64,000 nt of DNA from Minisyncoccia bacterium (lineage in GTDB: Bacteria; Patescibacteriota; Minisyncoccia; Phycocordibacterales; UBA9973), in the NCBI GenBank assembly GCA_038244685.1, contig JBBRTD010000003.1, positions 3,944 to 67,943 on the forward strand, given 5' to 3'. Below the pieces are notes generated by a model. The model saw only the letters and a program-made list of their open reading frames with translations. It was not told where the DNA came from and searched no databases. Position 1 is the first letter of the stretch, and every line of letters starts with the position of its first letter. Positions 2,877-63,081 of this stretch are shown piece after piece. Made by a program: the position numbers and the translations under genes.

Positions 2877-2881
2877 AAATT

Positions 2882-4408: not shown

Positions 4409-4411
4409 ATT

Positions 4412-5485
4412 ATGAACATTGATTTAATAAAAAAAATAATAGAATATGGAGTGCAAGCTCCTTCTGGGGATAATTCTCAACCTTGGAAATTTGTAATTAC
4501 TGATAGAAATGAAATTATGCTTTACAATTTATCCGACAAAGATAATCCTATTTTAAATGTACACGAAGGAGGTTCTTTGATATCACATGGAGCTGTAATT
4601 CAAAATATTAAAATCGCTGCTGATAACTTTGGTTACAAAACTATTGTTTCTTACCTGCCAAATATTTTAGATAAAGACCTAATTGCTATTATTTCTTTTT
4701 TGGATAATAAAGAAAAAAATAAAGCATATGAATTGAGTTTATTTAACTCTATACATAGACGTTGTACAAATAGGAATCATTATGAAAAAGATTTAGATAT
4801 TAATGCCATAACCGAGTTACAAAAAACAGTCGAATCTTTTAATTTTAAGGTTATTATATTTGATAATCAAAAAGATAAAGATTTAGTCTCTTCTTGTATT
4901 TGCATGAGCGAAGAAATTATTCTTCAAACAAAAGAGTTGCATGAATTACTTTTTGCTGATGTTGCTTGGACCAAAAAAGAGGAATCAATAAAACGACATG
5001 GATTATTTGTTAAAACTTTAGAATTTAATCCTGTGCAACTCTTTGTTTTTTGGTTGTGCCGTAAGTGGAAGAATATATCTTTTTTAAATCAAAAAATAGG
5101 ATTTGCTCATATTGTAGGTAATCAAAACGCCGATATTTATAGATCAAGCGGCATACTCGGGCTGATAATTATTCCTAGTACTGAAAGGATAAATTATCTT
5201 AGGGCAGGGGAATTATTACAGCAAATATGGCTTAAATCAACTCAATTAAACTTAAGTTTTCAGCCTATTACAGGTCTATTTTTCCTAAATGAAAGAATTA
5301 AAGTATTTGGGGATAGTCCTATCTCTAAAGAAAATAGCAAAAAAATATCCGACGCATATAATACTTTAAAGAATTTAAGCGCGATAAATGATAGTGATAT
5401 CATTTTAACTTCATTTAGAATAGGAAAATCCAAAGAATCTAGTGGTAGGTCTTCTAGACTTAAGCCTAATATTATATTAAATTAA
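4412..5485 (+). CDS. Two-domain nitroreductase-family flavoprotein (SagB-like size)
   Basis: N-terminal APSGDNSQPWKF nitroreductase signature. 357 aa suggests a tandem/extended nitroreductase fold. Confidence 0.6.
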   Translation: MNIDLIKKIIEYGVQAPSGDNSQPWKFVITDRNEIMLYNLSDKDNPILNVHEGGSLISHGAVIQNIKIAADNFGYKTIVSYLPNILDKDLIAIISFLDNKEKNKAYELSLFNSIHRRCTNRNHYEKDLDINAITELQKTVESFNFKVIIFDNQKDKDLVSSCICMSEEIILQTKELHELLFADVAWTKKEESIKRHGLFVKTLEFNPVQLFVFWLCRKWKNISFLNQKIGFAHIVGNQNADIYRSSGILGLIIIPSTERINYLRAGELLQQIWLKSTQLNLSFQPITGLFFLNERIKVFGDSPISKENSKKISDAYNTLKNLSAINDSDIILTSFRIGKSKESSGRSSRLKPNIILN

Positions 5486-12104: not shown

Positions 12105-13076
12105 ATGAAAAAAAGATTATTATCAGGAATTCAACCTTCGGGAATCATACATATAGGTAACTATTTTGGAGCTATAAAACAGTTTGTTGACCTTCAGAAT
12201 GAATACGACTCTTTTGTCTTTATAGCTGACCTTCACGCTATTACAACCATCCAAAATAAGGATATATTATCTTTAAATACATTAAACGTCGCTATGGATT
12301 ATTTAGCTTGCGGCTTAGACCCTGAGAAAATATGCTTATTTAAGCAGTCCGATATTCCAGAAGTTGCTGAACTTGCTTGGTATTTTAATTGTATTACAAC
12401 AATGCCATATTTAGAGAGAGCAACAGCCTATAAAGATGCAAATATGAAAGCCAAAGAAGTAAATGTAGGACTTTTTGATTACCCAATTCTAATGGCCGCA
12501 GATATTTTGATACAAGATGCTGATGTTGTTCCAGTTGGCGCAGACCAAAAGCAACACGTAGAATACGCCAGAGATATAGCTCAAAAATTTAATAATACAT
12601 TTGGAGAGACATTTAAATTACCAGAACCAATTATTCTAAAAGAAGTTTCGATTGTGCCTGGTATTGACGGAAGAAAAATGAGCAAGAGTTATGGTAATAC
12701 CATTCCATTGTTTGGATCAGATGAACAAATTAAAAAAGCAGTCATGGGTATAGTCACTGATTCAAAAAGCCCAGAAGAATCTAAAGACCCTGAAAAATGT
12801 AATATTTTTGCCATACATAAATTATTCTTAAAAGGAGAAGACCTAGAAAATCTTAAAAATAGATATACGAAAGGAGGTTTAGGATATAAAGAATCAAAAG
12901 ATATGCTTTTGAGTGAAATTATATCTTTTATTAAACCAATGAGAGAAAAGAGGGATTTTTATGAAAAAAATATAGATATTGTTAAGGGGATTCTTAGGGA
13001 AGGATCTCTTAAGGCAAAAAATAACATACAAGAAAAAATGAAAATTATTAGAATTAATGTTGGCGTAAATTTATGA
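12105..13076 (+). CDS. trpS: Tryptophanyl-tRNA synthetase
   Basis: SGIQPSGIIHIGNY and KMSKSYGN motifs. 323 aa. Confidence 0.9.
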   Translation: MKKRLLSGIQPSGIIHIGNYFGAIKQFVDLQNEYDSFVFIADLHAITTIQNKDILSLNTLNVAMDYLACGLDPEKICLFKQSDIPEVAELAWYFNCITTMPYLERATAYKDANMKAKEVNVGLFDYPILMAADILIQDADVVPVGADQKQHVEYARDIAQKFNNTFGETFKLPEPIILKEVSIVPGIDGRKMSKSYGNTIPLFGSDEQIKKAVMGIVTDSKSPEESKDPEKCNIFAIHKLFLKGEDLENLKNRYTKGGLGYKESKDMLLSEIISFIKPMREKRDFYEKNIDIVKGILREGSLKAKNNIQEKMKIIRINVGVNL

Positions 13077-31961: not shown

Positions 31962-31970
31962 AAAAAAATA

Positions 31971-32010
31971 AAGGACCTAAACTTTTTTAGAGTTTAGGTC
32001 CTTTGTTTTA
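31971..32010. terminator. Terminator after fba (also 3' of minus-strand small ORF)
   Basis: 12-bp stem aaggacctaaac/gtttaggtcctt with U-rich loop. Confidence 0.65.
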
Positions 32011-32226
32011 TTATACAATTGTTTTTCGTCCAACTTTTAAAAAAATGGAATCGAAAAAACAATAAACAGACAAAGATAATATTCCGCCAATGAATAAGAA
32101 GCTCGGAATAGTTAGGAATAGAGAAGTAGTTCCTTCTACAAATACTATTTTAAGTAAAAATAAGTATTTTGTAATAAAAACAGTCTCGAAACCAAAAAAA
32201 ATAATCCAATAAATCTTGTCTTTCAT
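32011..32226 (-). CDS. Small 2-TM membrane protein, hypothetical
   Basis: Two hydrophobic helices. Stop abuts the fba hairpin. Confidence 0.25.
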   Translation of the reverse strand: MKDKIYWIIFFGFETVFITKYLFLLKIVFVEGTTSLFLTIPSFLFIGGILSLSVYCFFDSIFLKVGRKTIV

Positions 32227-32675
32227 TTTTTAAGATTTTTTAGTTAATTTTTAATCAAATCGTAAATAATCGTTTTTCGAATCTCAAAGGTTATTTTTCG
32301 AGATTTAGCCTTAAACTTATTATCAGAGATGCATCGTCTAAGCAAAATGTCCATTTTTGCATTTCGGTCATTTTTTTCAAAACATGTAATTACAAATAAC
32401 AACGAATTAAGAAAGTTTTTTTTCATAGTCTTAGTTTTAAAAAGTTATAAAAAAAATATTATTGAGTTGTCTTTATTTCTCTGTTTAATATTAAACAGGG
32501 GAACGAGGATAACCCAATAAATGATTAAAAATTAATTTTATTAAAGAACATAACTAACTTAATCTTTTTATAGTATATCATAAATATTGCAAAATGTCAA
32601 TACGTACTAATACTTTATTCCATTCAAATATAACAGAATTAATGATATATTACTACTAAAATTTGCAATTATGAC

Positions 32676-35123: not shown

Positions 35124-36095
35124 ATGAATTTAGACTTAGAACAACTTAAAAAGGATCATAAAACAAGTTACTTTGCTTTCGAATACGAACGCCTCTTGAA
35201 CGAAGAAGAGAAAGTAAATGAAATGGTAACAGGGGACGAAAGTCTTCGTGATTTAGCAGAAGAAGAAATTCAAAATATTAAATTTCAAAAAGATGCTATT
35301 GAGCGTCAAATTGAAGAGATGGTTAAATCAGAAAAAGAAGATGAAGAATTTCCAAATGAAATTGTTCTTGAGGTTAGAGCTGGAGCTGGAGGAGATGAAG
35401 CTTCACTTTTCGCTTGGGAATTAGCTCACATGTATGAAAGATTTGCTGAGATAAATAGATGGCACTGGAAAGTACTAAATGAATCTACCAGTAGTGCCGA
35501 TGGATACAAAGAAGCTTCTTTCGAAATAAAAGGTAAGGATGTCTACAAACTTCTTCGTTATGAGACAGGTGTTCATCGTGTCCAACGCGTTCCTTCGACA
35601 GAAAAAAATGGCAGAATTCATACTTCGACAGCTTCAGTTGCTATTTTGCCGATTCGTACAAAAGTAAAAATTGAAATAAACCCAAGCGATTTAGAAATAG
35701 AATATTCACGTAGTGGGGGTGCGGGAGGGCAAAATGTTAACAAAGTTGAAACAGCAGTTAGACTAATACATAAGCCAACAGGTATAGATGTCCGATGTAC
35801 AACAGAGAGAAATCAGCTTGGAAATAGAGAGAAGGCTTTTATGATTCTATCATCGAAATTACAAATGATGGAAGATGAAAGAGAAGCAAGTAAATACTCT
35901 GAAAATCGCAAAAATCAGATAGGCACGGCGGACCGAAGTGAAAAAATACGTACATATAATTTTCCTCAAGATAGAGTAACAGACCACCGCATTAAACAAT
36001 CTTGGTCAAATATTCCAGGCATTATGGAGGGTAATATAACTAAAATAATAGAAGCAGTTTCTTTGGGGGAAATGGGAAATGATGAAGAAGAATAA
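35124..36095 (+). CDS. prfA: Peptide chain release factor 1
   Basis: GGQ motif [14 protein letters not shown] tripeptide (RVPSTE) indicates RF1 rather than RF2. TATAAT 7 nt upstream of ATG 35124; track ORF starts at TTG 35106. Confidence 0.85.
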
Positions 36096-36106
36096 TATTT
36101 TTGTAA

Positions 36107-36134
36107 AAATTTAATTTAGTAGTATAATGTTGGT
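36107..36134 (+). promoter_or_regulatory. Sigma70-like promoter of giant surface-protein gene
   Basis: TTGTAA-N16-TATAAT about 75 nt upstream of ATG 36210. Confidence 0.4.
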
Positions 36135-36158
36135 ACTTATATATTTTTTCTTGCAAAC

Positions 36159-36425
36159 TTGTCCTTTGTCATAAAAAATAAATATATTAATATTAAATAT
36201 AAATTCATAATGCAAATGAAAATAGTTCCCGTATGTATTTCTTCCGTAACAGATAAGATCTTCAGTAAAAATGTCTTATCAAAAATAACAACTATTTTTG
36301 TTTTAAGTTTAATATTAATCACATCTCTCTTTGCTATTTTCCCAAACCAAGCTCAAGCTGTTTGGACAGAAAGAACGACAGCTGGCTCTAGAAATTGGCT
36401 GTCTATCGCATCATCAGCAGATTGA
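36159..36425 (+). CDS. Signal-peptide-bearing N-terminal fragment of giant Asp-box/FN3 surface protein, terminated by in-frame TGA (likely start ATG 36210)
   Basis: Signal peptide ...ITTIFVLSLILITSLFAIFPNQAQA, then first repeat WTERTTAGSRNWLSIASSAD. TGA 36423-36425 sits where GGA(Gly) occurs in all other repeats. Same frame as 36537..45047. Confidence 0.55.
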   Translation: MSFVIKNKYINIKYKFIMQMKIVPVCISSVTDKIFSKNVLSKITTIFVLSLILITSLFAIFPNQAQAVWTERTTAGSRNWLSIASSAD

Positions 36426-36536
36426 ACTAAACTTGCGGCAGTTGCAAAACCTGGATATATATATACATCTACTAATAGTGGAGTATCTTGGACAGAAAGG
36501 ACAACAGCTGGCTCAAAAAATTGGCAATCAATTGCT

Positions 36537-39500
36537 ATGTCCTCTGACGGAACTAAATTAGTTGCTGCGGTTTTTGGTGGCGATATTTATACCTCGACAG
36601 ATAGTGGAGCGACCTGGACAGATAGAACTGGTGCCGGTTTAAGAAATTGGTATTCCGTTTCTTCTTCATCAGATGGAACTATATTAATGGCAGCTAATGA
36701 TGATGGATGGTGGGCTTCATATATTTACACATCAGAAGATAGTGGTGCCACTTGGACACAGCAAACTGGGACGGGTGCTAATCATTTTTGGAGAGCTACA
36801 GCAATATCAGCAGATGGATCCAAAATGGTAGCTGTTGCAAATAATGATAATATTTACATATCAAATAATACAGGGTCAACTTGGATAAAAACTGACTCAA
36901 GTCTTATAACTTGGACATCAGTTACTATGTCTTCTGATGGAACTAAACTAGCTGCAGTTGCTGGTGCTCCGTATCAATATGGTAATCCTAGTTACTATGT
37001 CTATACATCTATTGATGGTGGAACAACTTGGCTAGAACAGACTGGATCTACAAAAACATCATCTAGATTTTCTATTGCTTCTTCTGCTGATGGAACTAAA
37101 TTAGCTACTGCTGATTATGGTATTTATTCGTCGGGTGATTATATAAACAAATCTAACGATAGTGGAACTACTTGGTCAACACAAACAACTGCAGGACAAA
37201 GATTATGGAAATCTATTGCTACATCTGCCGATGGATCAAAATTAGCTGCTGTTGCTTATGGTGGATATATTTATACTTACACACCTACCTTAACTTCAAC
37301 AATAACAACAGACGTTAATTCATCTCTAACTCAAACATCTACTATACTAAATGGAACTATTACAAATATTGGAGAAGAAAATCCAAGTATTAGAGGTTTC
37401 GAGTATGGATTAACTACAGGATACGGAACAACCACAGTAGATAATGGTTCCTTTGGTGTTGGTTCTTTCAGTAAAGATATTACATCGCTATCTTGTGGAA
37501 CTTTGTATCATTTCCGTGCTTATGCGACTAATAGTGGAGGTAAGGCAATAGGAGGTGATCAAACTTTTACAACAAATCCATGTACTTACCCATTACTAAG
37601 TACTAATTCTGCTTCTTCTATATCTTTAACAGGAGCTACTTTAAATGGAAATATTTCAAATATTGGACAAGATAATTCTACAGTTAGAGGATTTCAATAT
37701 GGATTAACAATAAGTTACGGAACAACGACAACAGAGAATGGATCTTTTGCTACAGGAGCTTTTACTTCTGATATTGTTGGTCTAAATTGTGGAAATACTT
37801 ACCACTTCCGTTCATATGCCACTAACTCAATAGGTACTGGTTATGGAGATGATTTAACTTTCGCAGCAAGTAATTGTTCATCTGCCGGTTGGGTTCAGAG
37901 AACAAGTGCTGGGATAAATCCTTGGATGTCAGTTACTACATCAGCAGACGGAACCAAATTAGCTGCGACTTCAAATAATAATGGTAATGGATATATTTAT
38001 ACTTCAACAGATAGTGGTGTCACTTGGACACAAAGAACAGGTGCAGGTTTTAAATTTTGGACATCAATTGCTTCATCTGCAGATGGAACTAAACTAGCTG
38101 CTGCTGTTTACAATGATTATATTTATACATCAACAGATAGTGGGGCCACTTGGACACAGCAAACTGCTCCAGGAATTAAAAATTGGATGAAAATTATTTC
38201 ATCAGCAGATGGAATGATTCTAGGTGCGTGGAATACAAGTGACGGAAGATTTAGTACATCAATAAATGGTGGAGTTGCATGGACAATACAATACGGGGCA
38301 AGTTCAGTTGGAATAGGAGCAAACGTAACAATGACTCCTACTGGAGATAAAATGGCAGGATCTTATGATGGTAATATTTCTTATATTTCTACTTCAAGTA
38401 ATTCTGGTGTTACCTGGACAAAACAATTAAATTCCGACGAACGTAGTTGGAGTGGAATAACAATTTCTTCTAATGGAACTAAAATTGCAGTAACTTCAGG
38501 TGGAATGTCCAATCTTGGTTATATTTTTACATCGACAGACAGTGGAGTAACCTGGACACAGAGAACAAGCGCGGGGAATTTAAAATGGATGGATATTGCT
38601 TCATCCTCTGATGGAAATACATTGATTGCAACAACATTTAATGGTTACATGTATTTATCTAGAGATTCTGGAAATACTTGGATAGAACAAACATCTACAG
38701 GCATAAAATACTGGAAGGATATTTATTCTTCATCAGATGGAAGTAAATTTATAACAATTGGATGTGATACAAATTGCTATATTTACACTTACGAACAAGC
38801 CCACCTTTCAACATTAGATACAAACCCTGCAACCTCCATTCTTTCAAACGCAGCTACTTTAAATGGTTATATTTCTAATACAGGAGGAGAAGTTTCAAGT
38901 GTGAGAGGATTTGAATATGGTATAGATACAAGTTATGGAAAAAATACAATTGAAAATGGATCATTTGGAATTGGTGCGTTTACAAAAAATGTTTCAGCTT
39001 TAATTTGTGAGACCACATACCATTACCGTTCATATACCACAAATGGTGGCGGAAATTCATATGGGGCAGATCAAACATTTACTACTGGTACATGTTCTGG
39101 TATTCCCGTTATGTTAACAAGCGCCGCTTCAAATATATCTCCAACCTCAGTTACCTTAAATGGTGATATTACTGATATCGGATTAAGTAGTCCTACAATA
39201 AGAGGGTTTGAATATGGACTAACAACAAACTATAGTGCATCAAACATAGGTAATGGTACATTTGGAGTTGGTGCATTTTCAAAAAATGTCTCAGCTTTAA
39301 TTTGTGGTTCTACTTATCACTATCGTTCATTTGCTACAAATACCACAGGAACAGGTTATGGACAAGACTTAACATTCAATACAAGTCCTTGTATTTATCC
39401 TTCACTATCTACCAATACTGCAACATTAGTGACTTCTATTTCTGCTACTTTAAATGGATCTATTTCAAATACAGGAGGAGTAAATCCTACAGTTAGAGGT

Positions 39501-42500
39501 TTCGAATATGGAACAACAATAAGTTATGGAACAACTGTAAACGAAAGTGGTACATTTGGAATTGGATCATATACTAAAAATACTACAGGACTTACTTGTG
39601 CAACTCTATACCACTATCGTGCTTATGCAACGAATAGTAACGGAACAGGGTCGGGGAATGATCAAACATTTACCACAGGAACATGTTCTGGAATTTCAAC
39701 ATTAACAACAGAATCAGCAAATTTAATTTCATTAAACTCTGCAACTCTAAATGGAACCATTACAAATACAAGCGGTGAGAATCCAACAGTTCGCGGTTTT
39801 GAATATGGAACAACCATAAGTTACGGAACATCAACAATTGAAAGTGGTTCATTTGGAATTGGAGCTTATATAAAAAACGTTAATACTTTAACTTGTGGAA
39901 CTCTATACCACTATCGTTCATATGCCACAAATAGTGGAGGAAGCGGTTATGGTAACGATCAGACATTTACCACAGGAACTTGCTCTGGTATTTCAACGTT
40001 AACAACAGAAGCAGTATCTACTCTTACTTCAACTTCTGCTACATTAAATGGAACTGTCACTAATACAAATGGTGCTAATCCTACAATTCGAGGTTTCGAA
40101 TATGGAACAACAATAAGTTATGGAACAACTGTAAATGAAAGTGGAACATTTGGAATTAGTAGTTACTCAAAAGATATTTCTTCTCTAACTTGTGCAACCC
40201 TATACCACTTCCGTTCATATGCCACAAATAGCGTTGGAACAGGTTATGGTAATGATCAAACATTTACCACAAACAGTTGTACATACCCTGACTTAACAAC
40301 TACATATGCAACATCAATTGTTAAAACTGCAGCCACACTAAATGGATCTATTTCAAATACAGGAGGAGTAAATCCTACAATTAGAGGATTCGAATATGGG
40401 TTAGATACTAGTTATGGAACTCAAGTAAACGAAAGTGGTTCATTTGGAATTGGATCATACTCTAAAAATATTTCTTCTTTAACCTGTGGAACTCTATACC
40501 ACTATCGTTCATATGCCACAAATGCCAATGGTACAGGAAATGGTAATGATCAAACATTTACTACTGGTACTTGTTCTGGAACAATAGGATGGACGGCTCA
40601 ATATAATATAGGAGCAAAAACGTGGTGGGCAATTGCCTCTTCCACTGATGGAACAAAATTAGCAGCAACAGCCATAAGTGATTATATTTATACTTCTACA
40701 GATGGTGGTTTAAACTGGACGGCACAAATAAATTCAGGAATAAATGGTTGGTATTCAATAGCATCATCTTCTGATGGTAATAAATTAGTTGCAATTGGCT
40801 CTGACTTCAGTGGTTGGGGATATATTTATACATCAACAGACAGCGGAGTGACCTGGACAAAAAGAGTGAGCGCTGGTAATCGTACATGGGGTACTGTGGT
40901 CTCATCTTCAGATGGAACTAAACTAGCAGCAGCTGTTAATAATAGCGATGTATATACTTCTACAGATAGCGGAGCCACATGGACAGAAAGAACAGGAACA
41001 GGTTCACACTACTGGGGAACTGTTGCCATGACTTCATCTGCCGATGGAATGAAATTAGCAATAGTTTATTACAACGGTTTAATTCAAACATCAGTAGACG
41101 GTGGAGCAACTTGGACAGCCCAAGCAAATTCTGGAATGCTTGGATGGTCAACTATAGTTTCATCTGCTGATGGAAATAAATTAGCTGCAGCAACTTCCAA
41201 TAGCTATATTTATACATCTATTGACAGTGGAGTAAATTGGACCGCTCAAACTAATTCAGGAGCAACTCACTACTTTAGAAATATGTTTTCATCTCCAGAT
41301 GGTTCAATATTATTTGCCTTAGATAATAGTTCTACAAATAGCTATATTTATAAATCCATAGACAGCGGAGTGACTTGGACAACTGATGCTATTGCTGGGT
41401 CTAAAAGATGGCAAACATTATCCTCATCCTCAGATGGATCTAAATTAGCAGTTGCAAATTCGAGTGATTATTATATTTATACATATGGAGATATAAATAT
41501 GCCTAAGCCGACAGTAGATACAGCTGTTATTACAGGAGTAAGTACGGTAACACTTAATGGATTTGTTGATACAGATAACACAACTCGAGGATTCCAATAT
41601 GGACTAACAACAAGTTATGGAAATACAACAACAGAAAATGGAACATTTAATTATGGACCAATGACTGCAAATATTTCAGGAATTACGCCTGATGTTACTT
41701 ACCATTTCCGTTCGTATGCGACAAATTTATCTGGAACTGCGTATAGTGAAGACAATATATTTGTTCTTAAATACCAAAACTGGACACCAAATACTATTGT
41801 TGGCTCTCGTTATTGGAGTGCAGTAGCTTCATCATCTGATGGAAATAAATTAGTTGCAGTGGTTCAAGGTGGATATATTTATACATCAACTGATGGCGGA
41901 ACAACTTGGACAGAAAGAAATGGCGCAGGTTCCAGACAGTGGAAAGCAGTTGCCTCATCAGCTGATGGAACAAAACTTGTAGTGGCCAATGGAAGCAATG
42001 GCTTTATATATACATCGACAGATAGCGGAGTTAATTGGACACTAAGAACTTCTTCAGGATTATACTGGTGGATGTCACTTACATCATCATCTGATGGAAC
42101 AAAATTAGCCGCGACGACAGGGAATGGTACGGGATATATTTTCACATCAGCAGATAGTGGAGCAACTTGGGTACAACGTTCAGTTTCCGGTTCCCATAGT
42201 TTTAATTCAATTATTTCTTCAGCAGATGGAACTAAATTAGCAGCAACTGCTTACAGTGATTATATTTATACATCAACTGACAGTGGAGCAACCTGGGTGC
42301 AGAGAACAAATTCAGGTTCTCATAGTTTTTATTCAATTGCATCATCTGCCGATGGAACGAAATTAGCAGCAGCTAGTCATGATTTAAGTGGTTATATTTA
42401 TACATCAACCGACAGTGGAGCAACATGGGTAAAAAGAACAAGTGCAGGTATACGCACTTGGACATTAATTACTTCATCTTCCGATGGAACAAAATTAGCT

Positions 42501-45047
42501 GCAATTGATATAAAAACTTCGACAAGTACTGGCTATATTTATATATCAAATGATAGTGGAGCAAATTGGATAGCTGAAGCAAGTGCAAGTACTCGTGCTT
42601 GGACTTCGTTAACCTCATCAGCTGATGGAAGTAAATTAATTGCAGGAGTAAGTAGTAATTATTTATATTCTTATTCTCTACCAACTTCTCCAATTGTTAA
42701 AACAAACTCAGTAACACTTTCAACTGGAACATCTGTAACTCTAAATGGTCAAATAATAGATAATAAAGGTGACAATTCTACTGTCAGAGGATTCCAATAT
42801 GGATTAACAACAAGTTATGGAACTACAACATTGGAAAATGGATCATTCGGAGTCGGAACTTTTTCAACAAATCTAACAGGTCTTACCGCAAATACTACTT
42901 ATCACTATCGTTCTTATGCAACAAATTCACTTGGGACAAGCTACAGTGATGATGCAACTTTTGAAATAAAACCATTCGTCGAACAAATCACTTCTGGTAA
43001 GCATTATTGGTATGCAATTACTTCATCTTCCGATGGAACAAAATTAGCTGCAGTTGATTACGGTGGAAGTAGTACAGGAAGTATATACACATCAACAGAC
43101 AGTGGCGCCAACTGGACACAAAGAACAACTTCTAATTCACATAAATGGCTATCTATTACTTCATCTGCAGATGGAACTAAATTAGCAGCAGCTGCTTATC
43201 CTGGGTATATTTATACGTCACTCGATAGTGGAGTAACATGGGTAGAGCAGACAAATTCTGCATCATGTAATTGGAATGGGATTACTTCATCTACCGATGG
43301 AATAATTCTTGCTGCAATTGGAACTAATTGTATTTATACATCAGAAGATAGTGGTGATACTTGGACATCAAGGAATAATTCAGGACTTAACGGGGGAAAT
43401 TCAATTACTTCATCTTCAAACGGAATAAAAATGGCAGCAACTAATGGATTAGGTTATATATACATATCAGGAGATAGTGGTACAACTTGGACCGCTCAAA
43501 CAAGCTCAGGTTCACATACATGGCGTTCAATAACTTCATCTGCCGATGGAACAAAATTAGCTGCAATAGATTATCTTGGAACTGGAAGTGGTGGTTATAT
43601 TTATACATCAACAGATAGTGGTGTTACTTGGACGCAACAAACAAATTCTGGAGCTCGATATTGGATGTCAATTACATCATCGACTGATGGAACGAAATTA
43701 GCAGCAGTAGTTAATAATAATTATATTTATACCTCAGTAGATAGTGGAGTTACTTGGACACAACAATCAAGTGGAGGCTTACGTACTTGGTATTCCATTA
43801 CTAGTTCATACGACGGAATTAAAATAATTGCCGCAGCTTCAAATAGTAATATTTTTACCAATACTATTCCAGAAGTTCCATTAGTAAATACGCAAGATGC
43901 ATCTTCAGTTACGGTTAGTTCCGCGGTTTTAAATGCAACCATTGAAAACTTGAGCGGAGAATATCCAATCAGTAAAGGATTTGAATATGGATTAGACACA
44001 AGCTACGGAAGCACTGTTATTATAAATGGAGTATCAAGCCAGAGATCATATGCGATGGACGTAACAGCACTAGCAGAAGATACAACTTATCACTATAAAA
44101 GTTATGCTACAAATACTGTCGGAACAGGTTTCGGAGATGATCAAACCTTCACCACAGCTTCTGTAGAAGAAATAACATCTTTCGATTCAATACCAAATAT
44201 TACTGGAGGATTAGCAGGAAGCCCTACTTATGTAGATGCAGCAGCTATAATCGCAATATTACCATCATCCGTAAAGGCAAATAGTAATGCCGCGACAGTT
44301 CCTGTAACTTCATGGACAAACACTGATTTATATAATACAAATATGCCAGGAAGTTATACATTTACAGCAACACTAGGATCAATCCCTGTAGGATTTGCAA
44401 ACTCTGGGAACTTCACAGCAACGATAGAAGTAATAATTGGAGGAGTTCCTGTTACTGGTGGCAAAATCGAGATAAGAGGCGGTGGAGGTGGTGGATCTTC
44501 AACAAGTACAGTTTATATTGATCAGAAAAAGGATCCAATTCTTCCATCACTACCGAAGTCTGACCTAGAATTAAATTCTATAACAGCACAAGGATGTATA
44601 CCTGGAGGTTTATTCAGTGTAACAACAGGTAAACCATGTACAGGAATAACTCCAATTACACAAGAAGAAAAGACTACAACTGTTAAAACTATTATAGATA
44701 ATAGCCAAATAATAACTAAAACAATTACAGGATGCACAACAGGATCTTTATTCAACATAATATCAGGAGAGCCATGCAGTACAATAAATACAATTCAACC
44801 TTTAGACTCTGTATCTAAAAGCACCAGCTCTCTTGTCTTCACTAAATTGATTAAAATCGGAAGTAGAAGTGCTGATGTCAAAAAAATACAAACATATTTA
44901 AATGCAAGAGGTTTTGATTGTGGAATTGTAGATGGTTACTTTGGCTTCAAGACCAAAAGTAGTCTGATAAATTTCCAAAAAATGAATAAATTAACTCCAG
45001 ATGGAACAGTAGGGAAGATAACAATTCGGGCAATGAATAGTATTTAA
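36537..45047 (+). CDS. Giant (2836 aa) cell-surface protein: 5 blocks of BNR/Asp-box beta-propeller repeats alternating with 11 FN3-like domains, C-terminal Cys-motif and PG_binding_1 anchor
   Basis: About 35 S-x-D-x-G-x-T-W motifs on a ~42-aa period (YIYTSTDSGxTWT...SSxDGTKLAA). Eleven ~98-aa units ending ...YHYRSYATNSxGTGYGxDQTFTTGTCS. C-terminal GSRSADVKKIQTYLN...VDGYFGFKT...FQKMNKLTPDGTVG peptidoglycan-binding domain. Confidence 0.85.
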   Translation: MSSDGTKLVAAVFGGDIYTSTDSGATWTDRTGAGLRNWYSVSSSSDGTILMAANDDGWWASYIYTSEDSGATWTQQTGTGANHFWRATAISADGSKMVAVANNDNIYISNNTGSTWIKTDSSLITWTSVTMSSDGTKLAAVAGAPYQYGNPSYYVYTSIDGGTTWLEQTGSTKTSSRFSIASSADGTKLATADYGIYSSGDYINKSNDSGTTWSTQTTAGQRLWKSIATSADGSKLAAVAYGGYIYTYTPTLTSTITTDVNSSLTQTSTILNGTITNIGEENPSIRGFEYGLTTGYGTTTVDNGSFGVGSFSKDITSLSCGTLYHFRAYATNSGGKAIGGDQTFTTNPCTYPLLSTNSASSISLTGATLNGNISNIGQDNSTVRGFQYGLTISYGTTTTENGSFATGAFTSDIVGLNCGNTYHFRSYATNSIGTGYGDDLTFAASNCSSAGWVQRTSAGINPWMSVTTSADGTKLAATSNNNGNGYIYTSTDSGVTWTQRTGAGFKFWTSIASSADGTKLAAAVYNDYIYTSTDSGATWTQQTAPGIKNWMKIISSADGMILGAWNTSDGRFSTSINGGVAWTIQYGASSVGIGANVTMTPTGDKMAGSYDGNISYISTSSNSGVTWTKQLNSDERSWSGITISSNGTKIAVTSGGMSNLGYIFTSTDSGVTWTQRTSAGNLKWMDIASSSDGNTLIATTFNGYMYLSRDSGNTWIEQTSTGIKYWKDIYSSSDGSKFITIGCDTNCYIYTYEQAHLSTLDTNPATSILSNAATLNGYISNTGGEVSSVRGFEYGIDTSYGKNTIENGSFGIGAFTKNVSALICETTYHYRSYTTNGGGNSYGADQTFTTGTCSGIPVMLTSAASNISPTSVTLNGDITDIGLSSPTIRGFEYGLTTNYSASNIGNGTFGVGAFSKNVSALICGSTYHYRSFATNTTGTGYGQDLTFNTSPCIYPSLSTNTATLVTSISATLNGSISNTGGVNPTVRGFEYGTTISYGTTVNESGTFGIGSYTKNTTGLTCATLYHYRAYATNSNGTGSGNDQTFTTGTCSGISTLTTESANLISLNSATLNGTITNTSGENPTVRGFEYGTTISYGTSTIESGSFGIGAYIKNVNTLTCGTLYHYRSYATNSGGSGYGNDQTFTTGTCSGISTLTTEAVSTLTSTSATLNGTVTNTNGANPTIRGFEYGTTISYGTTVNESGTFGISSYSKDISSLTCATLYHFRSYATNSVGTGYGNDQTFTTNSCTYPDLTTTYATSIVKTAATLNGSISNTGGVNPTIRGFEYGLDTSYGTQVNESGSFGIGSYSKNISSLTCGTLYHYRSYATNANGTGNGNDQTFTTGTCSGTIGWTAQYNIGAKTWWAIASSTDGTKLAATAISDYIYTSTDGGLNWTAQINSGINGWYSIASSSDGNKLVAIGSDFSGWGYIYTSTDSGVTWTKRVSAGNRTWGTVVSSSDGTKLAAAVNNSDVYTSTDSGATWTERTGTGSHYWGTVAMTSSADGMKLAIVYYNGLIQTSVDGGATWTAQANSGMLGWSTIVSSADGNKLAAATSNSYIYTSIDSGVNWTAQTNSGATHYFRNMFSSPDGSILFALDNSSTNSYIYKSIDSGVTWTTDAIAGSKRWQTLSSSSDGSKLAVANSSDYYIYTYGDINMPKPTVDTAVITGVSTVTLNGFVDTDNTTRGFQYGLTTSYGNTTTENGTFNYGPMTANISGITPDVTYHFRSYATNLSGTAYSEDNIFVLKYQNWTPNTIVGSRYWSAVASSSDGNKLVAVVQGGYIYTSTDGGTTWTERNGAGSRQWKAVASSADGTKLVVANGSNGFIYTSTDSGVNWTLRTSSGLYWWMSLTSSSDGTKLAATTGNGTGYIFTSADSGATWVQRSVSGSHSFNSIISSADGTKLAATAYSDYIYTSTDSGATWVQRTNSGSHSFYSIASSADGTKLAAASHDLSGYIYTSTDSGATWVKRTSAGIRTWTLITSSSDGTKLAAIDIKTSTSTGYIYISNDSGANWIAEASASTRAWTSLTSSADGSKLIAGVSSNYLYSYSLPTSPIVKTNSVTLSTGTSVTLNGQIIDNKGDNSTVRGFQYGLTTSYGTTTLENGSFGVGTFSTNLTGLTANTTYHYRSYATNSLGTSYSDDATFEIKPFVEQITSGKHYWYAITSSSDGTKLAAVDYGGSSTGSIYTSTDSGANWTQRTTSNSHKWLSITSSADGTKLAAAAYPGYIYTSLDSGVTWVEQTNSASCNWNGITSSTDGIILAAIGTNCIYTSEDSGDTWTSRNNSGLNGGNSITSSSNGIKMAATNGLGYIYISGDSGTTWTAQTSSGSHTWRSITSSADGTKLAAIDYLGTGSGGYIYTSTDSGVTWTQQTNSGARYWMSITSSTDGTKLAAVVNNNYIYTSVDSGVTWTQQSSGGLRTWYSITSSYDGIKIIAAASNSNIFTNTIPEVPLVNTQDASSVTVSSAVLNATIENLSGEYPISKGFEYGLDTSYGSTVIINGVSSQRSYAMDVTALAEDTTYHYKSYATNTVGTGFGDDQTFTTASVEEITSFDSIPNITGGLAGSPTYVDAAAIIAILPSSVKANSNAATVPVTSWTNTDLYNTNMPGSYTFTATLGSIPVGFANSGNFTATIEVIIGGVPVTGGKIEIRGGGGGGSSTSTVYIDQKKDPILPSLPKSDLELNSITAQGCIPGGLFSVTTGKPCTGITPITQEEKTTTVKTIIDNSQIITKTITGCTTGSLFNIISGEPCSTINTIQPLDSVSKSTSSLVFTKLIKIGSRSADVKKIQTYLNARGFDCGIVDGYFGFKTKSSLINFQKMNKLTPDGTVGKITIRAMNSI
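38805..40572 (+). repeat. Tandem array of six ~294-bp FN3-like domain repeats with long near-identical DNA stretches
   Basis: Recurrent ggaactctataccactatcgttcatatgccacaaatag and caaacatttaccacaggaacatgttctgg segments at ~294-bp spacing. Confidence 0.7.
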
Positions 45048-45086
45048 TTCCCTAAAAAATTAACATATTAAATAAAACAAATTATT

Positions 45087-48000
45087 TTGAAAAAATTCAA
45101 AAACCTAAAATTAATTTTCTCAGTTTTTATTAGTCTTCTTATTATTATAAGTAATTTAAATTCGCCAATTTTAGTAAATGGTGAAGATAATTTTAATTAT
45201 AATATTAAAAAAGAAGTAGGAATAAAAAATTATGCCGATGGAGAAATAATTGTAAAATTTAAAGATGACAAAGTAAAATTAGATACAACTTCTGGTAAAT
45301 TAAAAATGGCAACTCTTGCCCAAGATAACTCACTTGAAAAAAAAGAAGACCTAAAAGAGAATAATATTTCTGTTTTTAAAATCAAAGATAATAAAACAGT
45401 AGAAGAAAAAATAGCAGAATTAGAAAGTGATCCAAATGTTTTGTATGCTGAGCCCAACTACAAACGTTATCCAAGTTCTATTAGTACTAATGATACTAGC
45501 AAAAATTTACTATGGGGTCTTGATAATACAAGCCAAACAGTGAACAGCGTTTCGGGCACTCTCGACGCTGATATAGACGGACCAGAAGCTTGGGCAATTA
45601 ATGAAGGGACTAATTCTTCTGTAATCGTGGCAGTAATAGATACCGGTGTTGGATTTAATCATCCAGATATACTTGCAAATATGTGGGATGGAACAAATTG
45701 TAAAGATCAGCTGGGTAATTTTTTAGGAGGATGTAATCATGGTTATGACTACGAAAGCAATGATAAGATTCCATTACCACTAAGTAACTCTCACGGTACT
45801 CATGTCTCTGGTACAATCGCTGCTTTAAAAAATAATAGCAAGGGTATCATCGGAGTTGCACCAAATGCGAAAATAATGGCAATTAAATTTGGCTTTACTG
45901 TTAATGATGAAATAAAAGCAATAAATTTTGCTATTAAAAATGGAGCAAAGATAATTAATGCTAGTTTTGGAGGTAGCTCATTTTCACAATCTGAGTATGA
46001 TGCAATGAATCTATTCAAACAATCAGGCGGAATTTTTGTAGCAGCGGCAGGTAACGATGGTCTCGATAACAATACAATTCCTGTTTATCCTTCAAGTTAC
46101 GATTTAGACAATATCATATCAGTTGCAGCAACTGATCAAAATGATAGCCTTGCGACATTTTCAGACTACGGAACAACTTCAGTTGATGTTGGAGCTCCTG
46201 GTACAAATATTTTAAGTCTTATTACAGATACTGATGGTTCTGATGAAAAATATGGATATGGTAATGGAACTTCTATGGCAGCTCCTCATGTTGCAGGTCT
46301 TGCCGCATTAATCTGGGGAATGAGACCATCTCTTACTTACATCCAGGTCAAAAATATTATATTAAGTACTGGCGATTCGCTTCCGTCCTTAAATACTAAA
46401 ACTGTTTCAGGAAAAAGAATTAATGCATTTAATGCCTTAAATTATGTTTTAACTAATTATATTACTTATCCAACTGCTACTATTACTTACTCAGATACTG
46501 ACTTGATTGTAAAAGCTGGAGATTCATTAACTATTACAGCAAATTTAAATGAACCTGTACTAGACTCTCCATCATTAAAAATATCTATTAGTGGATCAAA
46601 TATATTAGCCCCAACCTTAATGACGAAGGTTAGTAATACGCAATATACATATATATATACAGTTAAAGAAGGGGATGGAATAGCTAATATTAATCTATCT
46701 AATGCAACAAATGCCGAAGGAAATTCTATTGTCAGCATTCCAAGCTCTGGCTCTTCTTTTACTGTTGATAATACAGCGCCAACAATATCAATTAGTTCTC
46801 CATCTGCATTATTTACCAAATCTGGACCTATTACATACATCGCAACATATACAGACGCTACTTCAATAACATTAGCTGATATAGATGTAACCCTAAATAC
46901 TACAGGAGGAGCCACTGGAACAATCAATGTTTCTCCAAACGATGAGACAACAAGAAAAATTTCAATTTCAAATATAAGTGGTGATGGAACACTAGGAATT
47001 AGTATAAATACAAACACTGCCTCTGACATAACTGGTAATATATCCCTATCAACAAGCCCAAGTGAAATTTTTACAGTTGATAATACTGCTCCTTTAAATC
47101 AAGATATAGTATTCAGCTCGTCTTTAAACAAAAAAGGTAGCAGTTTAATAAATATTGTTTCTTCAGAAAACATAAATAATAATGTATGGATTGCACCAGA
47201 AGGAACTAATTTATTTACAGAAAGTTCTACTATAACAAAAGCCATCAACGGCACAGCTCTGAGTATCTTAGCCCCAGAAAGCGAAGGTGTTTATAAAATA
47301 TTTATAATTGATGAAGCTGGTAATATTTCTGCTCCATCTCTATCAACTCTAACCATAGATAATACTGCCCCTTTGATGCCTACAATAACATCAATAGCGA
47401 ATGATAATAAAATTAGTTATGAAGAAAAAAATTCTATTCACATAACAGGAATAGCTGAAGCTAACTCACTTGTAACAATATCTTTAACCGATAATATAAA
47501 TACAAAAGTTGGAACACAACAATTAATAAATAATAATACAAATTATGATATTGAAATTATAGGGTCAGAAGCTATTCCTTCGGCACTTATTGATGGCACA
47601 ATATACATTACAGCTACATCTACAGATGAAGTTGGAAATATTTCCCCAATAAATAATTTAAATGTTGTTCAATCTCCACAAATTATAGTTACAAATAGTG
47701 GAGGCGGTGGGGGTGGTGGTAGCTCGAGTTATACTACACCAACAATTAATCCAATTATAACAACCGCAATACCAACACCGTTGATTAGTCAAACTGCAAT
47801 ACCAGGATGTGACACTATGTCATTATTTAGTACAATCACAGGTAAGTCATGCGGAAATACAAACATAGCACCAATATTTAATACGGATACAAATAAAGAG
47901 ACTCCCGTTTTATATAATATTACTAAAACATTAAAACAAGGTAATAATAATAATGAAGTTAAGGTATTACAAAAATATTTAAATTCAAAAAGTTACTATA

Positions 48001-48146
48001 TATCGCTATCAGGTCCAGGTTCTATTGGCAAAGAGACAACATTATTCGGTCCTGCAACAAAAAAAGCGCTTATTAAATTCCAGAAAGCTAATAAATTAAA
48101 GGCTGACGGAGTAGCAGGAGCTATAACCAGAAGTCTAATTAAATAA
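45087..48146 (+). CDS. Secreted subtilisin-like (S8) serine protease with I9 propeptide, Ig-like (TVDNTAP) repeats and the same C-terminal Cys-motif + PG_binding_1 anchor
   Basis: Catalytic triad motifs VIDTGV (Asp), HGTHVSGTIAA (His), GTSMAAPHVAGLAAL (Ser). TTG start with signal peptide. C-terminal GGGGGGGSSS...GCDTMSLFSTITGKSCG...EVKVLQKYLN...FQKANKLKADGVAG. Confidence 0.85.
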   Translation: MKKFKNLKLIFSVFISLLIIISNLNSPILVNGEDNFNYNIKKEVGIKNYADGEIIVKFKDDKVKLDTTSGKLKMATLAQDNSLEKKEDLKENNISVFKIKDNKTVEEKIAELESDPNVLYAEPNYKRYPSSISTNDTSKNLLWGLDNTSQTVNSVSGTLDADIDGPEAWAINEGTNSSVIVAVIDTGVGFNHPDILANMWDGTNCKDQLGNFLGGCNHGYDYESNDKIPLPLSNSHGTHVSGTIAALKNNSKGIIGVAPNAKIMAIKFGFTVNDEIKAINFAIKNGAKIINASFGGSSFSQSEYDAMNLFKQSGGIFVAAAGNDGLDNNTIPVYPSSYDLDNIISVAATDQNDSLATFSDYGTTSVDVGAPGTNILSLITDTDGSDEKYGYGNGTSMAAPHVAGLAALIWGMRPSLTYIQVKNIILSTGDSLPSLNTKTVSGKRINAFNALNYVLTNYITYPTATITYSDTDLIVKAGDSLTITANLNEPVLDSPSLKISISGSNILAPTLMTKVSNTQYTYIYTVKEGDGIANINLSNATNAEGNSIVSIPSSGSSFTVDNTAPTISISSPSALFTKSGPITYIATYTDATSITLADIDVTLNTTGGATGTINVSPNDETTRKISISNISGDGTLGISINTNTASDITGNISLSTSPSEIFTVDNTAPLNQDIVFSSSLNKKGSSLINIVSSENINNNVWIAPEGTNLFTESSTITKAINGTALSILAPESEGVYKIFIIDEAGNISAPSLSTLTIDNTAPLMPTITSIANDNKISYEEKNSIHITGIAEANSLVTISLTDNINTKVGTQQLINNNTNYDIEIIGSEAIPSALIDGTIYITATSTDEVGNISPINNLNVVQSPQIIVTNSGGGGGGGSSSYTTPTINPIITTAIPTPLISQTAIPGCDTMSLFSTITGKSCGNTNIAPIFNTDTNKETPVLYNITKTLKQGNNNNEVKVLQKYLNSKSYYISLSGPGSIGKETTLFGPATKKALIKFQKANKLKADGVAGAITRSLIK

Positions 48147-48343
48147 TATATTCCTTGCATTGTTTTTATATGTCTGTTATAATAAGGAAAGTAGTTAGCT
48201 TATGTTTTGGTATTAGTTTCACATTCTTCGTGTTTTAAACATTGAGGTCTGTAAATGAAATCAGCTATGCGATTACATTTATAAATTAGTTTTCTTCAAT
48301 TAGACGATATGAAAGTATCCCTATGAGAAGCATATTGTCATAT

Positions 48344-60583: not shown

Positions 60584-61888
60584 CTATCCGATGATTCTTG
60601 TGGTTATGAAAACTACAAGTTCAGTTTCATTTTTGTATTTGTTATCAGCTCCGAAAGCATATTTGATAATTGGAATCTTTCTAAAGAAAGGAATCCCAGT
60701 TTTATCGTCTTTGCTTACTTTGTTGATGAGTCCACCAATAGCAACTGTTTCGCCATTTTGAACTTTTAAGATTGTGCTGGTCGAACGACGTGCAACGATA
60801 GGCAGCTTTTGAATACTGGTACCATTTTTAAATTCACGTTCTCCAACAATATCAGATACTTCAGGGTTAACATTTAAACGAAGACTGCCATCACGATTTA
60901 CGAACGGCTGAACATTCATTTTTATTCCCACTTGAACTTCTTTGGTAGTGAAGTAGCTATAAGCTGTACCACCACCTGAGAGTATAAGGAACATATGTTC
61001 TTCTGAAATATTTATCATACCTGCTTCACCTTCTTCTACTATTATTCTTGGCTCTGCTACCATATTTATTTTGGTATCATAACCGCTAGTCGAAAGAAGG
61101 GTACTTAAACCAGATGTCAGGCTTGCTGTAAAAGTGGAAGCTCCACCTTTTATAAGCTCACCGAGACCAATACCAGAAAGATTTATGTCACTCCATTGAG
61201 CACCGATATTCTTTCCTTTTTTCCATTCAACCATTACGAAACGAGCGGTGACTTCAATCTGCCTTTTAGGTTTATCGATAATAGAAATATCTTTTTCTAT
61301 ACGATATAACACATCAGGAGTCGCAGTAATTGTTAACACCTGACCATCAGACTTTATAAAAGGATGATAGTAAGGTGAGATTTGCGACATGATTTTATCA
61401 GCTCCACGATTTGTTTTAACCGTCTTTGTTACAGTTAATGCATCAAAGCTGGTATTTTCCGGTAAAGCACTTCCTACAAGGTAATAACTACCATTGGCTA
61501 TATATGTATATTTATATCCGTTAGGGTACAAAACCATAGCTAAGGCCGTTTCAAGAGGAACTTTTTCTAAAGAAAGTGAGATCGCACCACTGACAGTATT
61601 ATCAGGAATTATATTGATTCCAGCTAACGTAGAAAGATCCATTAAGACTGACCTTATGTCAGTTTCGACGTAAATATTACTTACAAGCACCTGCTTTGTG
61701 CCACTTAATGACACAATCGATTTGACATCGTAATTTTGCTTTGCGAGTGAATCCTCACCATTTTCAAGAGCATTTATCTCTTGGTTGGAAAGCATAGGTT
61801 TAGGAGTTGTTTGTATAGGCGTCCTAACTGTGGCACAACTTGCTACAAGTATGCCAATCAAAATGTACAAAAAACAAGATTTTTTCAT
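60584..61888 (-). CDS. Lipoprotein secretin (PilQ/GspD/RcpA-type outer-membrane channel family)
   Basis: Lipobox ILVASC. Secretin_N-like region. Secretin core RQIEVTARFVMVEW...GGLINKV...GIPFFRKIPIIKYAFG...ELVVFITTRII. Confidence 0.8.
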   Translation of the reverse strand: MKKSCFLYILIGILVASCATVRTPIQTTPKPMLSNQEINALENGEDSLAKQNYDVKSIVSLSGTKQVLVSNIYVETDIRSVLMDLSTLAGINIIPDNTVSGAISLSLEKVPLETALAMVLYPNGYKYTYIANGSYYLVGSALPENTSFDALTVTKTVKTNRGADKIMSQISPYYHPFIKSDGQVLTITATPDVLYRIEKDISIIDKPKRQIEVTARFVMVEWKKGKNIGAQWSDINLSGIGLGELIKGGASTFTASLTSGLSTLLSTSGYDTKINMVAEPRIIVEEGEAGMINISEEHMFLILSGGGTAYSYFTTKEVQVGIKMNVQPFVNRDGSLRLNVNPEVSDIVGEREFKNGTSIQKLPIVARRSTSTILKVQNGETVAIGGLINKVSKDDKTGIPFFRKIPIIKYAFGADNKYKNETELVVFITTRIIG

Positions 61889-61929: not shown

Positions 61930-63081
61930 TTACTTTATTTTTGAAACAATTTTTAAATTAAGATCTTTTCCTCTGTCAGTTATGAAAGGGATAGACCCTT
62001 CTTTGATTTTTGAACCTTCGTAATTAGGGATTATTGTCACCCTTAGATTACGAGATTCGCCAGGCTTAAGTATTAAATCATTTGGAAGTACAGTAATCCA
62101 ATCATTTGATGTGACCTTTATTGCTAAGGGTCGATAATCAAGATTAGAAACAGTTACAACTTCTGACCTTCTACTGTTCGGAGGAATAACTAAAGTTAAT
62201 TCCTTGGTTTTAATTCCTAAAAATTCAGTCGTTTCTTCGTCGATAGGTATCAGCCGGTTTATAGAGAATTTCTCTGTTTTACGAGCTTTTTTAAAATCAT
62301 ACCCATAGTTGAAGGATGTCTCGACAAGATAGTCACCAGTCGGTAACTGCTTATTTAAAACTCCTTCAAAATCAAGTTTTGAACTATCAGGAAATACAAA
62401 ATAATTTCCAATTTCAGTTATTGAACTTCCTAACCCCTTAAGTTCACATTTACCAAAAACATTCCGACCGTCTGCACTTTTAATTACAGCTTCAGCGGTT
62501 ACATTTAGGTGAATGTTGCCAGTATTTTGAAAAGTCGAACTTATCTTTAAACGTTCGTCTGTTTCTAAAACTTTAACTTCAGGAATTTGTCCAGACTTTA
62601 CATAAGTCCGACCGGGAACATCAATTAACACTAAAACGCCAACAACTACACGCACATTCATTTCTCTGTTTTTGCCATAGTCGATGACTTCATCTTCTTT
62701 TGGCTCAACAAAAATTATTGAATAATACTCTCCAGGGACTGCATCCCTCGGAACAGAAATCGTGAATTTGACGGATTCTTTTTTACCATCAAAAACCGAA
62801 AGTTCTGTTCTACCAAAAGTAATCCACTCTACAGCTGAGTGAGCACTACCAATTTTCCTCTCAAATAAAAGCGCACCTTTTCTGTCCATCGATAGGTCAG
62901 ACGGTGAAATAACCAAATTTTGTTTAAAAGGACCCTTGCTCCCAATAATATTGAGATTGAAGGTTTCTTTTGATCCCTTTGCGAGAGTCAGATTGAATTT
63001 TACGGGAGATACTTTCGCCCCGTATACAAAAAAATGACTTACTACAAAGAAAGTCACCAAAATAAAAACAATTCTTTTCAT
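61930..63081 (-). CDS. Secreted/N-anchored all-beta protein, hypothetical (possible secretin-associated assembly protein)
   Basis: N-terminal hydrophobic segment. 383 aa. No motif. Directly 5' of the secretin in the same orientation. Confidence 0.4.
   Translation of the reverse strand: MKRIVFILVTFFVVSHFFVYGAKVSPVKFNLTLAKGSKETFNLNIIGSKGPFKQNLVISPSDLSMDRKGALLFERKIGSAHSAVEWITFGRTELSVFDGKKESVKFTISVPRDAVPGEYYSIIFVEPKEDEVIDYGKNREMNVRVVVGVLVLIDVPGRTYVKSGQIPEVKVLETDERLKISSTFQNTGNIHLNVTAEAVIKSADGRNVFGKCELKGLGSSITEIGNYFVFPDSSKLDFEGVLNKQLPTGDYLVETSFNYGYDFKKARKTEKFSINRLIPIDEETTEFLGIKTKELTLVIPPNSRRSEVVTVSNLDYRPLAIKVTSNDWITVLPNDLILKPGESRNLRVTIIPNYEGSKIKEGSIPFITDRGKDLNLKIVSKIK

Follow-up and report, generated by a model that had tools for sequence, protein, structure and literature searches.

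A giant Asp-box propeller gene of a Nomurabacteria-type bacterium interrupted by a single in-frame TGA at a motif glycine codon

The giant gene and its in-frame TGA

The subject of this work is the largest open reading frame (ORF) of a 64-kb window of bacterial DNA (by window we mean the whole stretch analysed, from contig JBBRTD010000003.1; GC content 33%), a giant gene of about 2,940 codons that encodes a protein built of Asp-box β-propellers and FN3-like modules. Its single frame stays open from 36123 to the TAA at 45045-45047 on the forward strand, and the sole interruption is a TGA at 36423-36425. A first-pass annotation of the window had described one frame that a lone TGA breaks at a glycine codon, in a gene larger than any other present; translation and a scan of the repeats bear out the former statement and the ORF list the latter.

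Upstream of the TGA lies a 5' segment of 69 codons (36216..36422, +), whose translation reads MKIVPVCISSVTDKIFSKNVLSKITTIFVLSLILITSLFAIFPNQAQA up to a cleavage-type site between AQA and V, followed by VWTERTTAGSRNWLSIASSAD. The segment thus encodes a signal peptide (about 47 aa) up to this site and 22 residues at the start of the mature protein. The signal peptide is of the Sec type, with a lysine-rich start, a hydrophobic core (Kyte-Doolittle maximum 2.72, residues 28-42) and the AQA/VW junction, after which WTERTTAGSRNWLSIASSAD follows.

The TGA itself (36423..36425, +) occupies codon 70, the motif glycine of blade 1 (SSAD-G-TKLAA), and the text past it completes the Asp-box blade (TKLAAVAKPGYIYTSTNSGVSWTERT...). 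What is left of the giant ORF (36426..45047, +) counts 2,873 codons plus the TAA. Of the 34 scanned blades, 31 have GGA as the codon of the motif glycine, two have GGT and blade 1 has TGA, so that the earlier statement of GGA in every other repeat is correct for 31 of the 33 other blades and wrong for the two with GGT. As an observation in its own right, GGA is more frequent at the blade-motif glycine (31/33) than over all glycine codons of the giant gene (60%), an excess that could reflect codon-context bias or homogenisation among the repeats. The first in-frame ATG past the TGA (36537..36539, +) lies within blade 2 and is not a conserved start. The ORF called from it is 2,836 aa long and has no hydrophobic segment after its start (Kyte-Doolittle maximum 0.76), in agreement with the earlier claim that the body by itself carries no export signal.

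Judged by alignment, the gene more likely starts at ATG 36216 than at ATG 36210, since the former matches the ATG of the ortholog described below (L017:7440). The start chosen in the first-pass annotation, ATG 36210, is a possible alternative, and TTG 36159 is merely the first possible start in this frame. A promoter-like site, TTGTAA-16-TATAAT (36101..36128, +), was picked up by a consensus scan with 10/12 matches and is a consensus match only; both hexamers are kept upstream of the L017 ortholog in the nucleotide alignment.

This ortholog sits at the equivalent locus of a related genome (L017, JBBRVK010000009.1, Paceibacteria La3_metabat2.146). It begins 187 bp after prfA with the ATG at L017:7440, stays open until the locus ends, which gives it at least 2,324 codons, keeps the order of propellers and FN3-like modules seen in the window and encodes a protein that is 73% identical. 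In the nucleotide alignment, the window TGA at 36423-36425 corresponds to GGA and the window ATG at 36537 to TCA (Ser). The TGA column is furthermore occupied by glycine in 45/45 aligned homologs of more distant origin. A metagenome scan for orthologs yielded paralog-level relatives alone, with identities of at most 56%, and a protein search with a 409-aa query gave matches of up to about 55% identity.

From the sequence comparison, the two ORFs are pieces of one gene with a one-base lesion, since the L017 ortholog is open, carries GGA at the interrupted codon and has serine at the position of ATG 36537. They do not represent separate folding units either, because an AlphaFold2 model places the 22 mature residues ahead of the TGA in strands of propeller 1. 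The view of one gene split by the TGA, already put forward in the first-pass annotation, is therefore upheld by the intact ortholog, while orthologs starting independently at 36537, which it had considered as the alternative, were looked for and not found.

The comparison with L017 also speaks to the age of the lesion. At a synonymous divergence (dS) of about 0.82, the ratio of nonsynonymous to synonymous divergence (dN/dS) is 0.23 over 2,321 codons; upstream of the TGA it is 0.25 over 68 aligned codons and 0.06 for the 22 blade codons found there. No second stop or frameshift is present in the 2,942 codons of the giant gene. On these rates, the gene appears to have been under purifying selection until very recently, and the low dN/dS together with the lack of a second lesion means that the T is either very young or not real.

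Protein architecture and genomic setting

From N to C terminus, the giant protein comprises the signal peptide, propellers and FN3-like modules, a Big_4 domain, a Gly-rich linker, two Cys-loop motifs and a PG_binding_1 domain. The repeat blocks, all on the forward strand and with approximate boundaries, follow each other as propeller 1 (36357..37286, placed by motif positions; seven Asp-box blades, spanning the TGA), FN3-like modules 1-2 (37293..37895, recognised by the repeated core ...RGFEYG...YH[FY]R[SA]YATN...), propeller 2 (37896..38801, with six blades by motif scan and a degenerate seventh from the translation), modules 3-8 (38808..40601), propeller 3 (40602..41501), module 9 (41508..41795), propeller 4 (41796..42695, which holds the best Sortilin-Vps10 stretch), module 10 (42702..42989), propeller 5 (42990..43874) and module 11 (43881..44180). 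Propellers 3, 4 and 5 each show seven blades in the motif scan. The 34 scanned blades and the degenerate one hence make up five blocks of seven SxDxGxTW blades, and the 11 FN3-like modules of about 100 aa each are arranged as 2 + 6 + 1 + 1 + 1, which is the composition given in the first-pass annotation. The Big_4 Ig-like match (44256..44375, +; Pfam PF07532, E = 2.1e-5, 24.4 bits vs cutoff 22.1) and, behind the Cys-loop motifs, the C-terminal PG_binding_1 domain (44868..45035, +; Pfam PF01471, E = 8.8e-14, 51.9 bits vs cutoff 23) complete the protein.

Pfam matches in the ORF past the TGA are Sortilin-Vps10 (116 bits vs cutoff 33), BNR_6, PSII_BNR, Big_4 and PG_binding_1, and the NCBIfam model NF045728 (F510_1955 family glycosylhydrolase) matches ten stretches of the ORF with 198.8 bits vs cutoff 175. 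These matches and the SxDxGxTW signature place the protein in the Asp-box/BNR superfamily of 7-bladed β-propellers, next to GH74, Ycf48/HCF136, Sortilin-Vps10 and F510_1955. An AlphaFold2 model of the mature N-terminal propeller, calculated with glycine at the TGA, reached a pLDDT of 93.2 and a pTM of 0.92. Residues 1-22 contribute strands E2-6 and E12-19 to this model, with pLDDT means of 96-98 over 10-residue blocks. By analogy with the repeat pattern, VWTER would close the last blade and NWLSIASS would be the first strand of blade 1. Foldseek searches of the PDB with the propeller 1 model returned GH74 xyloglucanases, Ycf48 and designed 7-bladed propellers as top matches. The TM scores to the GH74 and Ycf48 structures are 0.7-0.78 (normalised to the query), whereas sequence identity to the solved Asp-box structures is only 12-19%, and 13-16% for those of GH74. 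In GH74 enzymes a tandem pair of propellers forms the catalytic cleft with its two catalytic Asp residues; here, in contrast, five propellers are set apart by FN3-like modules. The putative role of the giant protein would be binding of a glycan or of a partner-cell surface rather than catalysis.

The PG_binding_1 score above the gathering cutoff classifies the giant protein as wall-associated. It resembles PG_binding_1 exoproteins in combining a Sec signal with a C-terminal PG_binding_1 domain, a tail that it has in common with the adjacent S8 subtilase, and is unlike them in its very large size and its modular propeller/FN3 array. The subtilase gene (45087..48146, +) encodes a secreted protein with an N-terminal signal-like sequence and Pfam matches to Peptidase_S8, Fervidolysin prodomain and PG_binding_1. 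The C-terminal modules of the two proteins (44520-45044 in the giant protein, 47700-48143 in the subtilase) are homologous (35% identity, E = 3e-17) and consist of the Cys-loop I-x-G-C-x-x-x-S-L-F-x-x-I-[ST]-G-x-x-C followed by PG_binding_1. Such a common tail suggests one wall-anchoring device for both proteins, which probably leave the cytoplasm and stay attached to the wall of the producing cell, and the subtilase perhaps processes the giant protein.

When species-representative genomes were scanned with the gene for ribosomal protein L25, syntenic loci emerged in Candidatus Nomurabacteria, Paceibacteria or Paceibacterota, with L25 identities of at most 86%. By this relationship, the host bacterium is of the Nomurabacteria/Paceibacteria type within the Candidate Phyla Radiation (CPR). 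The giant gene is surrounded by ordinary, apparently intact housekeeping genes, with fructose-bisphosphate aldolase, L25, an SLT-domain protein, L31 and release factor 1 (RF1) upstream and an RRM protein followed by the F-type ATP synthase downstream. The immediate upstream neighbour of the giant gene (35124-36095) is prfA, encoding RF1, as it scores 375.9 bits with NF001859 vs 230.6 bits with the prfB model TIGR00020. We considered a link between the TGA and this adjoining release-factor gene and rejected it, because RF1 does not read UGA; that prfA lies beside a UGA lesion is a coincidence.

The stretch between prfA and the RRM gene is variable among relatives. It measures 150-250 bp in most of them, 0.6-2.6 kb in some and 12 kb here (36096-48322), and a 207-kb contig of one relative (L001, ~78% nucleotide identity) is devoid of the entire 36.1-48.1 kb block. 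Since most relatives lack it and the junction varies, the giant gene and the S8 subtilase gene form, on this comparison, an accessory block in a variable spot, a kind of gene that is often lost. In another related species (L008), a subtilase gene encoding a 75% identical protein is located upstream of the RRM gene. A foreign origin of the block was considered on the grounds of composition and is not supported, the GC content being 36.5% for the giant gene and 32.3% for the subtilase gene vs 32.6% for the rest of the window.

Several other features of the window and its relatives were recorded on the way. A gene on the reverse strand (60584-61888) carries Pfam Secretin and STN domains, with a PilQ-type model as its best NCBIfam match, below cutoff, and adjoins a gene for an Ig-like-domain protein (61930-63081); the secretin gene is worthy of mention, since CPR bacteria are not known to possess an outer membrane. 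At 742-5485 (+), a packed run of four genes encodes a ThiF/E1-like protein of the Rv1355c family, an ELFV-dehydrogenase-like protein, an F390-synthetase/acyl-CoA-ligase-like protein (weak match) and a nitroreductase-like protein, the first two genes being coupled by an ATGA overlap; the run may be a small modification or biosynthetic cluster. The 700 bp between the aldolase and L25 genes (31962-32675) hold no ORF of 100 aa or more, and the equivalent stretch in L001 has two small minus-strand genes (136 and 121 aa) of unassigned function. In a further related locus (L049, 7782-8761), the prfA match falls into two pieces that overlap (residues 1-253 and 222-323), as a frameshift or duplication at the junction would produce.

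Decoding of UGA in the window and its relatives

Under the standard code, the 53 other ORFs of at least 100 aa in the window are uninterrupted. Stop codon use in the window amounts to 47 TAA, 4 TAG and 2 TGA (53 ORFs). For 1,018 long ORFs of the window and of related Nomurabacteria-type loci (L001-L089), the corresponding counts are 814 TAA, 170 TAG and 34 TGA, although these are not independent as the related loci are mutually orthologous. Low GC, together with the fact that the genes sampled are housekeeping ones, can account for much of the rarity of TGA. Both TGA stops of the window (1795-1797 and 13074-13076) form ATGA overlaps with the next start, and trpS (12105-13076) ends in TGA at position 327/328 of the profile TIGR00233. 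The first-pass annotation was hence right to regard both as genuine stops.

We also searched related loci, about 1.26 Mb in all, for TGA codons in frame and retained those that are spanned by clean protein alignments. This filter returned the window's own site alone, with glycine in 12/12 alignments; the other candidates lay on the strand opposite to the main gene orientation and aligned with inconsistent residues, as is the case for antisense shadows. The tRNA genes of the window are tRNA-Leu(UAA) and tRNA-Ile(GAU) only. No tRNA with a UCA anticodon was detected, either in the window or among 60 related loci that were scanned and represent a small, syntenic sample of the genomes, and no homolog of release factor 2 (RF2, prfB) was detected in the window or the related loci, likewise a small, syntenic part of the genomes. 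Folding of the RNA from 36405 to 36500 revealed no structure beyond that of shuffled sequences (z = -0.04), and Rfam gave no match at E <= 1 near the TGA. Selenocysteine recoding was rejected on these two results and because the homologs have glycine, not cysteine, at the position.

According to a 2026 review (PMC13293708), recoding of UGA as glycine is restricted to the Gracilibacteria/JAEDAM01/SR1 lineage. The present case resembles genetic code 25 of the Gracilibacteria, Absconditabacteria (SR1) and JAEDAM01 in that a UGA stands where all homologs have glycine in a low-GC CPR bacterium. It differs in other respects: where code 25 brings many in-frame UGA codons at conserved glycines, the 64-kb window has one, and where code 25 leaves UGA unused as a terminator, TGA ends trpS, takes part in ATGA overlaps and closes 34 of the 1,018 long ORFs. 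The genomes closest by L25 are Nomurabacteria/Paceibacteria and not Gracilibacteria, Absconditabacteria or JAEDAM01, the ortholog has GGA, and no tRNA(UCA) was seen. In the literature we found nothing relevant on RF2 loss or UGA peculiarities in Parcubacteria/Patescibacteria outside the code-25 lineage. On these tests, programmed or lineage-wide reading of UGA has no support and the standard code applies.

Origin of the TGA and its consequences

With GGA in the intact ortholog and TGA in the window, the stop in the giant gene is one base away from a sense codon. We consider a real, recent nonsense mutation that leaves a null or near-null allele of an accessory surface-protein gene to be the best reading, with a probability of roughly 55%. 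The single frame, the GGA of the ortholog, the lack of a recoding signal and the use of TGA as a stop elsewhere are demonstrated, whereas the presence of the T in the DNA and the consequences for expression are inferred. Like known premature-stop pseudogenes or null alleles, the gene shows a single-base change from sense to stop early in the ORF, an undecayed remainder and an accessory status; it is unlike them in that the base rests on one assembly and that the lineage rarely uses TGA stops. The position of the stop carries little weight in this judgement, because the gene is rich in glycine and biased to GGA (200 of 334 glycine codons) and GGA to TGA is its most frequent one-step nonsense path, with 200 of 1,412 such paths (14%) and 36% of those that create TGA. 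Some findings weigh against a null allele. The allele is carried by one assembly alone, where the 71-aa protein P0121, called from ATG 36210, is found on one NCBI contig of 71,180 bp, and the complete lack of further decay would fit an intact gene with a wrong base just as well. TGA is moreover a rare stop (2/53 ORFs here, 34/1,018 long ORFs) and RF2 was not seen in the window or the related loci, so that UGA termination might be weak, with a small chance of a leak through the TGA that is larger than usual. Attempts to find the codon elsewhere gave no second copy: exact-product look-ups (the 2,836-aa ORF, the 88-, 71- and 69-aa upstream ORFs, prfA and the subtilase) had no record, scans for the exact pattern about the codon, its variable base entered as N, matched nothing in genome or metagenome contig collections, a protein search with the 71-aa N-terminus recovered the window's own ORF only, and two Logan contigs that are 100% identical to the window (L002 and L003, from SRR19962012 and SRR19962014) end at 35407 and 35964, before the site. 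With a single assembly carrying the allele, mutation and a base-call or consensus error are not separable.

An error of base calling, consensus or assembly, with GGA as the true codon and the gene intact, is a tentative second reading that deserves to be taken seriously. It agrees with the GGA of the ortholog, with the absence of any other lesion in about 8.8 kb at a dN/dS of 0.23 and with the confinement of the allele to a single assembly, but the rest of the window looks clean, as the 53 other ORFs are uninterrupted and none is apparently split by a frameshift. A systematic context error is contradicted by the six other GATGGAACTAAA sites of the giant gene, which are read correctly, and T is absent from this position in every repeat, so that a collapse of repeats cannot create it. 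As the window gives no other sign of poor base quality, we regard a real mutation as about twice as probable as an error, and these are the two options of the first-pass annotation that survive. Readthrough of UGA to useful levels is unlikely by comparison. It would have glycine inserted by a tRNA-Gly(UCA)-like suppressor, or tryptophan, cysteine or arginine by near-cognate tRNAs, so that a lineage with weak UGA termination still makes the exported full-length protein, possibly at a reduced, regulated level. The invariant glycine in 45/45 homologs, the known reading of UGA as glycine in the same superphylum, the low share of TGA among stops here and in relatives (~3-4%), the RF2 gene missing from the sequence covered and the perfectly preserved ORF past the TGA would all suit this explanation. 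Set against them are the solitary in-frame TGA in 64 kb and the lack of others in ~1.26 Mb of relatives, termination at the natural end of trpS and the ATGA overlaps at both TGA stops, the GGA of the ortholog, a taxon outside the code-25 lineage, the UCA-anticodon tRNA found in neither the window nor the small, syntenic sample of 60 related loci, the lack of a stimulatory RNA structure and the fact that mutational opportunity explains the glycine position. The stronger version, in which Nomurabacteria-type Paceibacteria terminate at UGA so poorly that UGA reappears in genes and is decoded, is very improbable. Phase variation typically affects large, variable surface proteins, and the giant gene sits in a variable hotspot. 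A heritable on/off switch of a surface adhesin, as raised in the first-pass annotation, is even so highly doubtful, since the codon and its surroundings are free of homopolymers, short tandem repeats, inverted repeats and invertible elements, the change amounts to one simple transversion (context GCAGAT-T-GAACT), and reversion would need an exact back-mutation or gene conversion from another blade. Least probable of all are two separate genes, one for a secreted peptide of 69-71 aa and one for an independent 2,836-aa protein from ATG 36537. A standard gene call does give two ORFs, but the ortholog is a single ORF with serine in place of that methionine, the upstream residues are strands of propeller 1, and the 2,836-aa product would start in the middle of a blade and lack a signal peptide. 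In an annotation, 36216-45047 is best entered as a single gene or pseudogene instead of two proteins.

If the T is a real mutation, an ancestral GGA at codon 70 would have become TGA by one G-to-T transversion. Ribosomes would then stop after 69 codons and release the signal peptide plus another 22 residues. The body of 2,873 codons would stay untranslated, be reinitiated at ATG 36537 or appear in traces through near-cognate leak at UGA, and a reinitiated body would lack the export signal and the first strands of propeller 1.

The finding has no bearing on the evolution of the genetic code unless recoding is true, and the rarity of TGA stops is the only feature that merits a genome-wide look in this regard. 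Should UGA be decoded after all, this codon would be the first visible case of an incipient UGA-to-Gly reassignment outside the Gracilibacteria/Absconditabacteria, perhaps with a glycine-inserting suppressor. Adhesin-like and accessory, the giant protein occurs in only a few related species. If the nonsense mutation is real, the loss or near-loss of the strain's largest surface protein has only just taken place, and it would provide a small, concrete example of the turnover of proteins for contact with a host or substrate in CPR bacteria.

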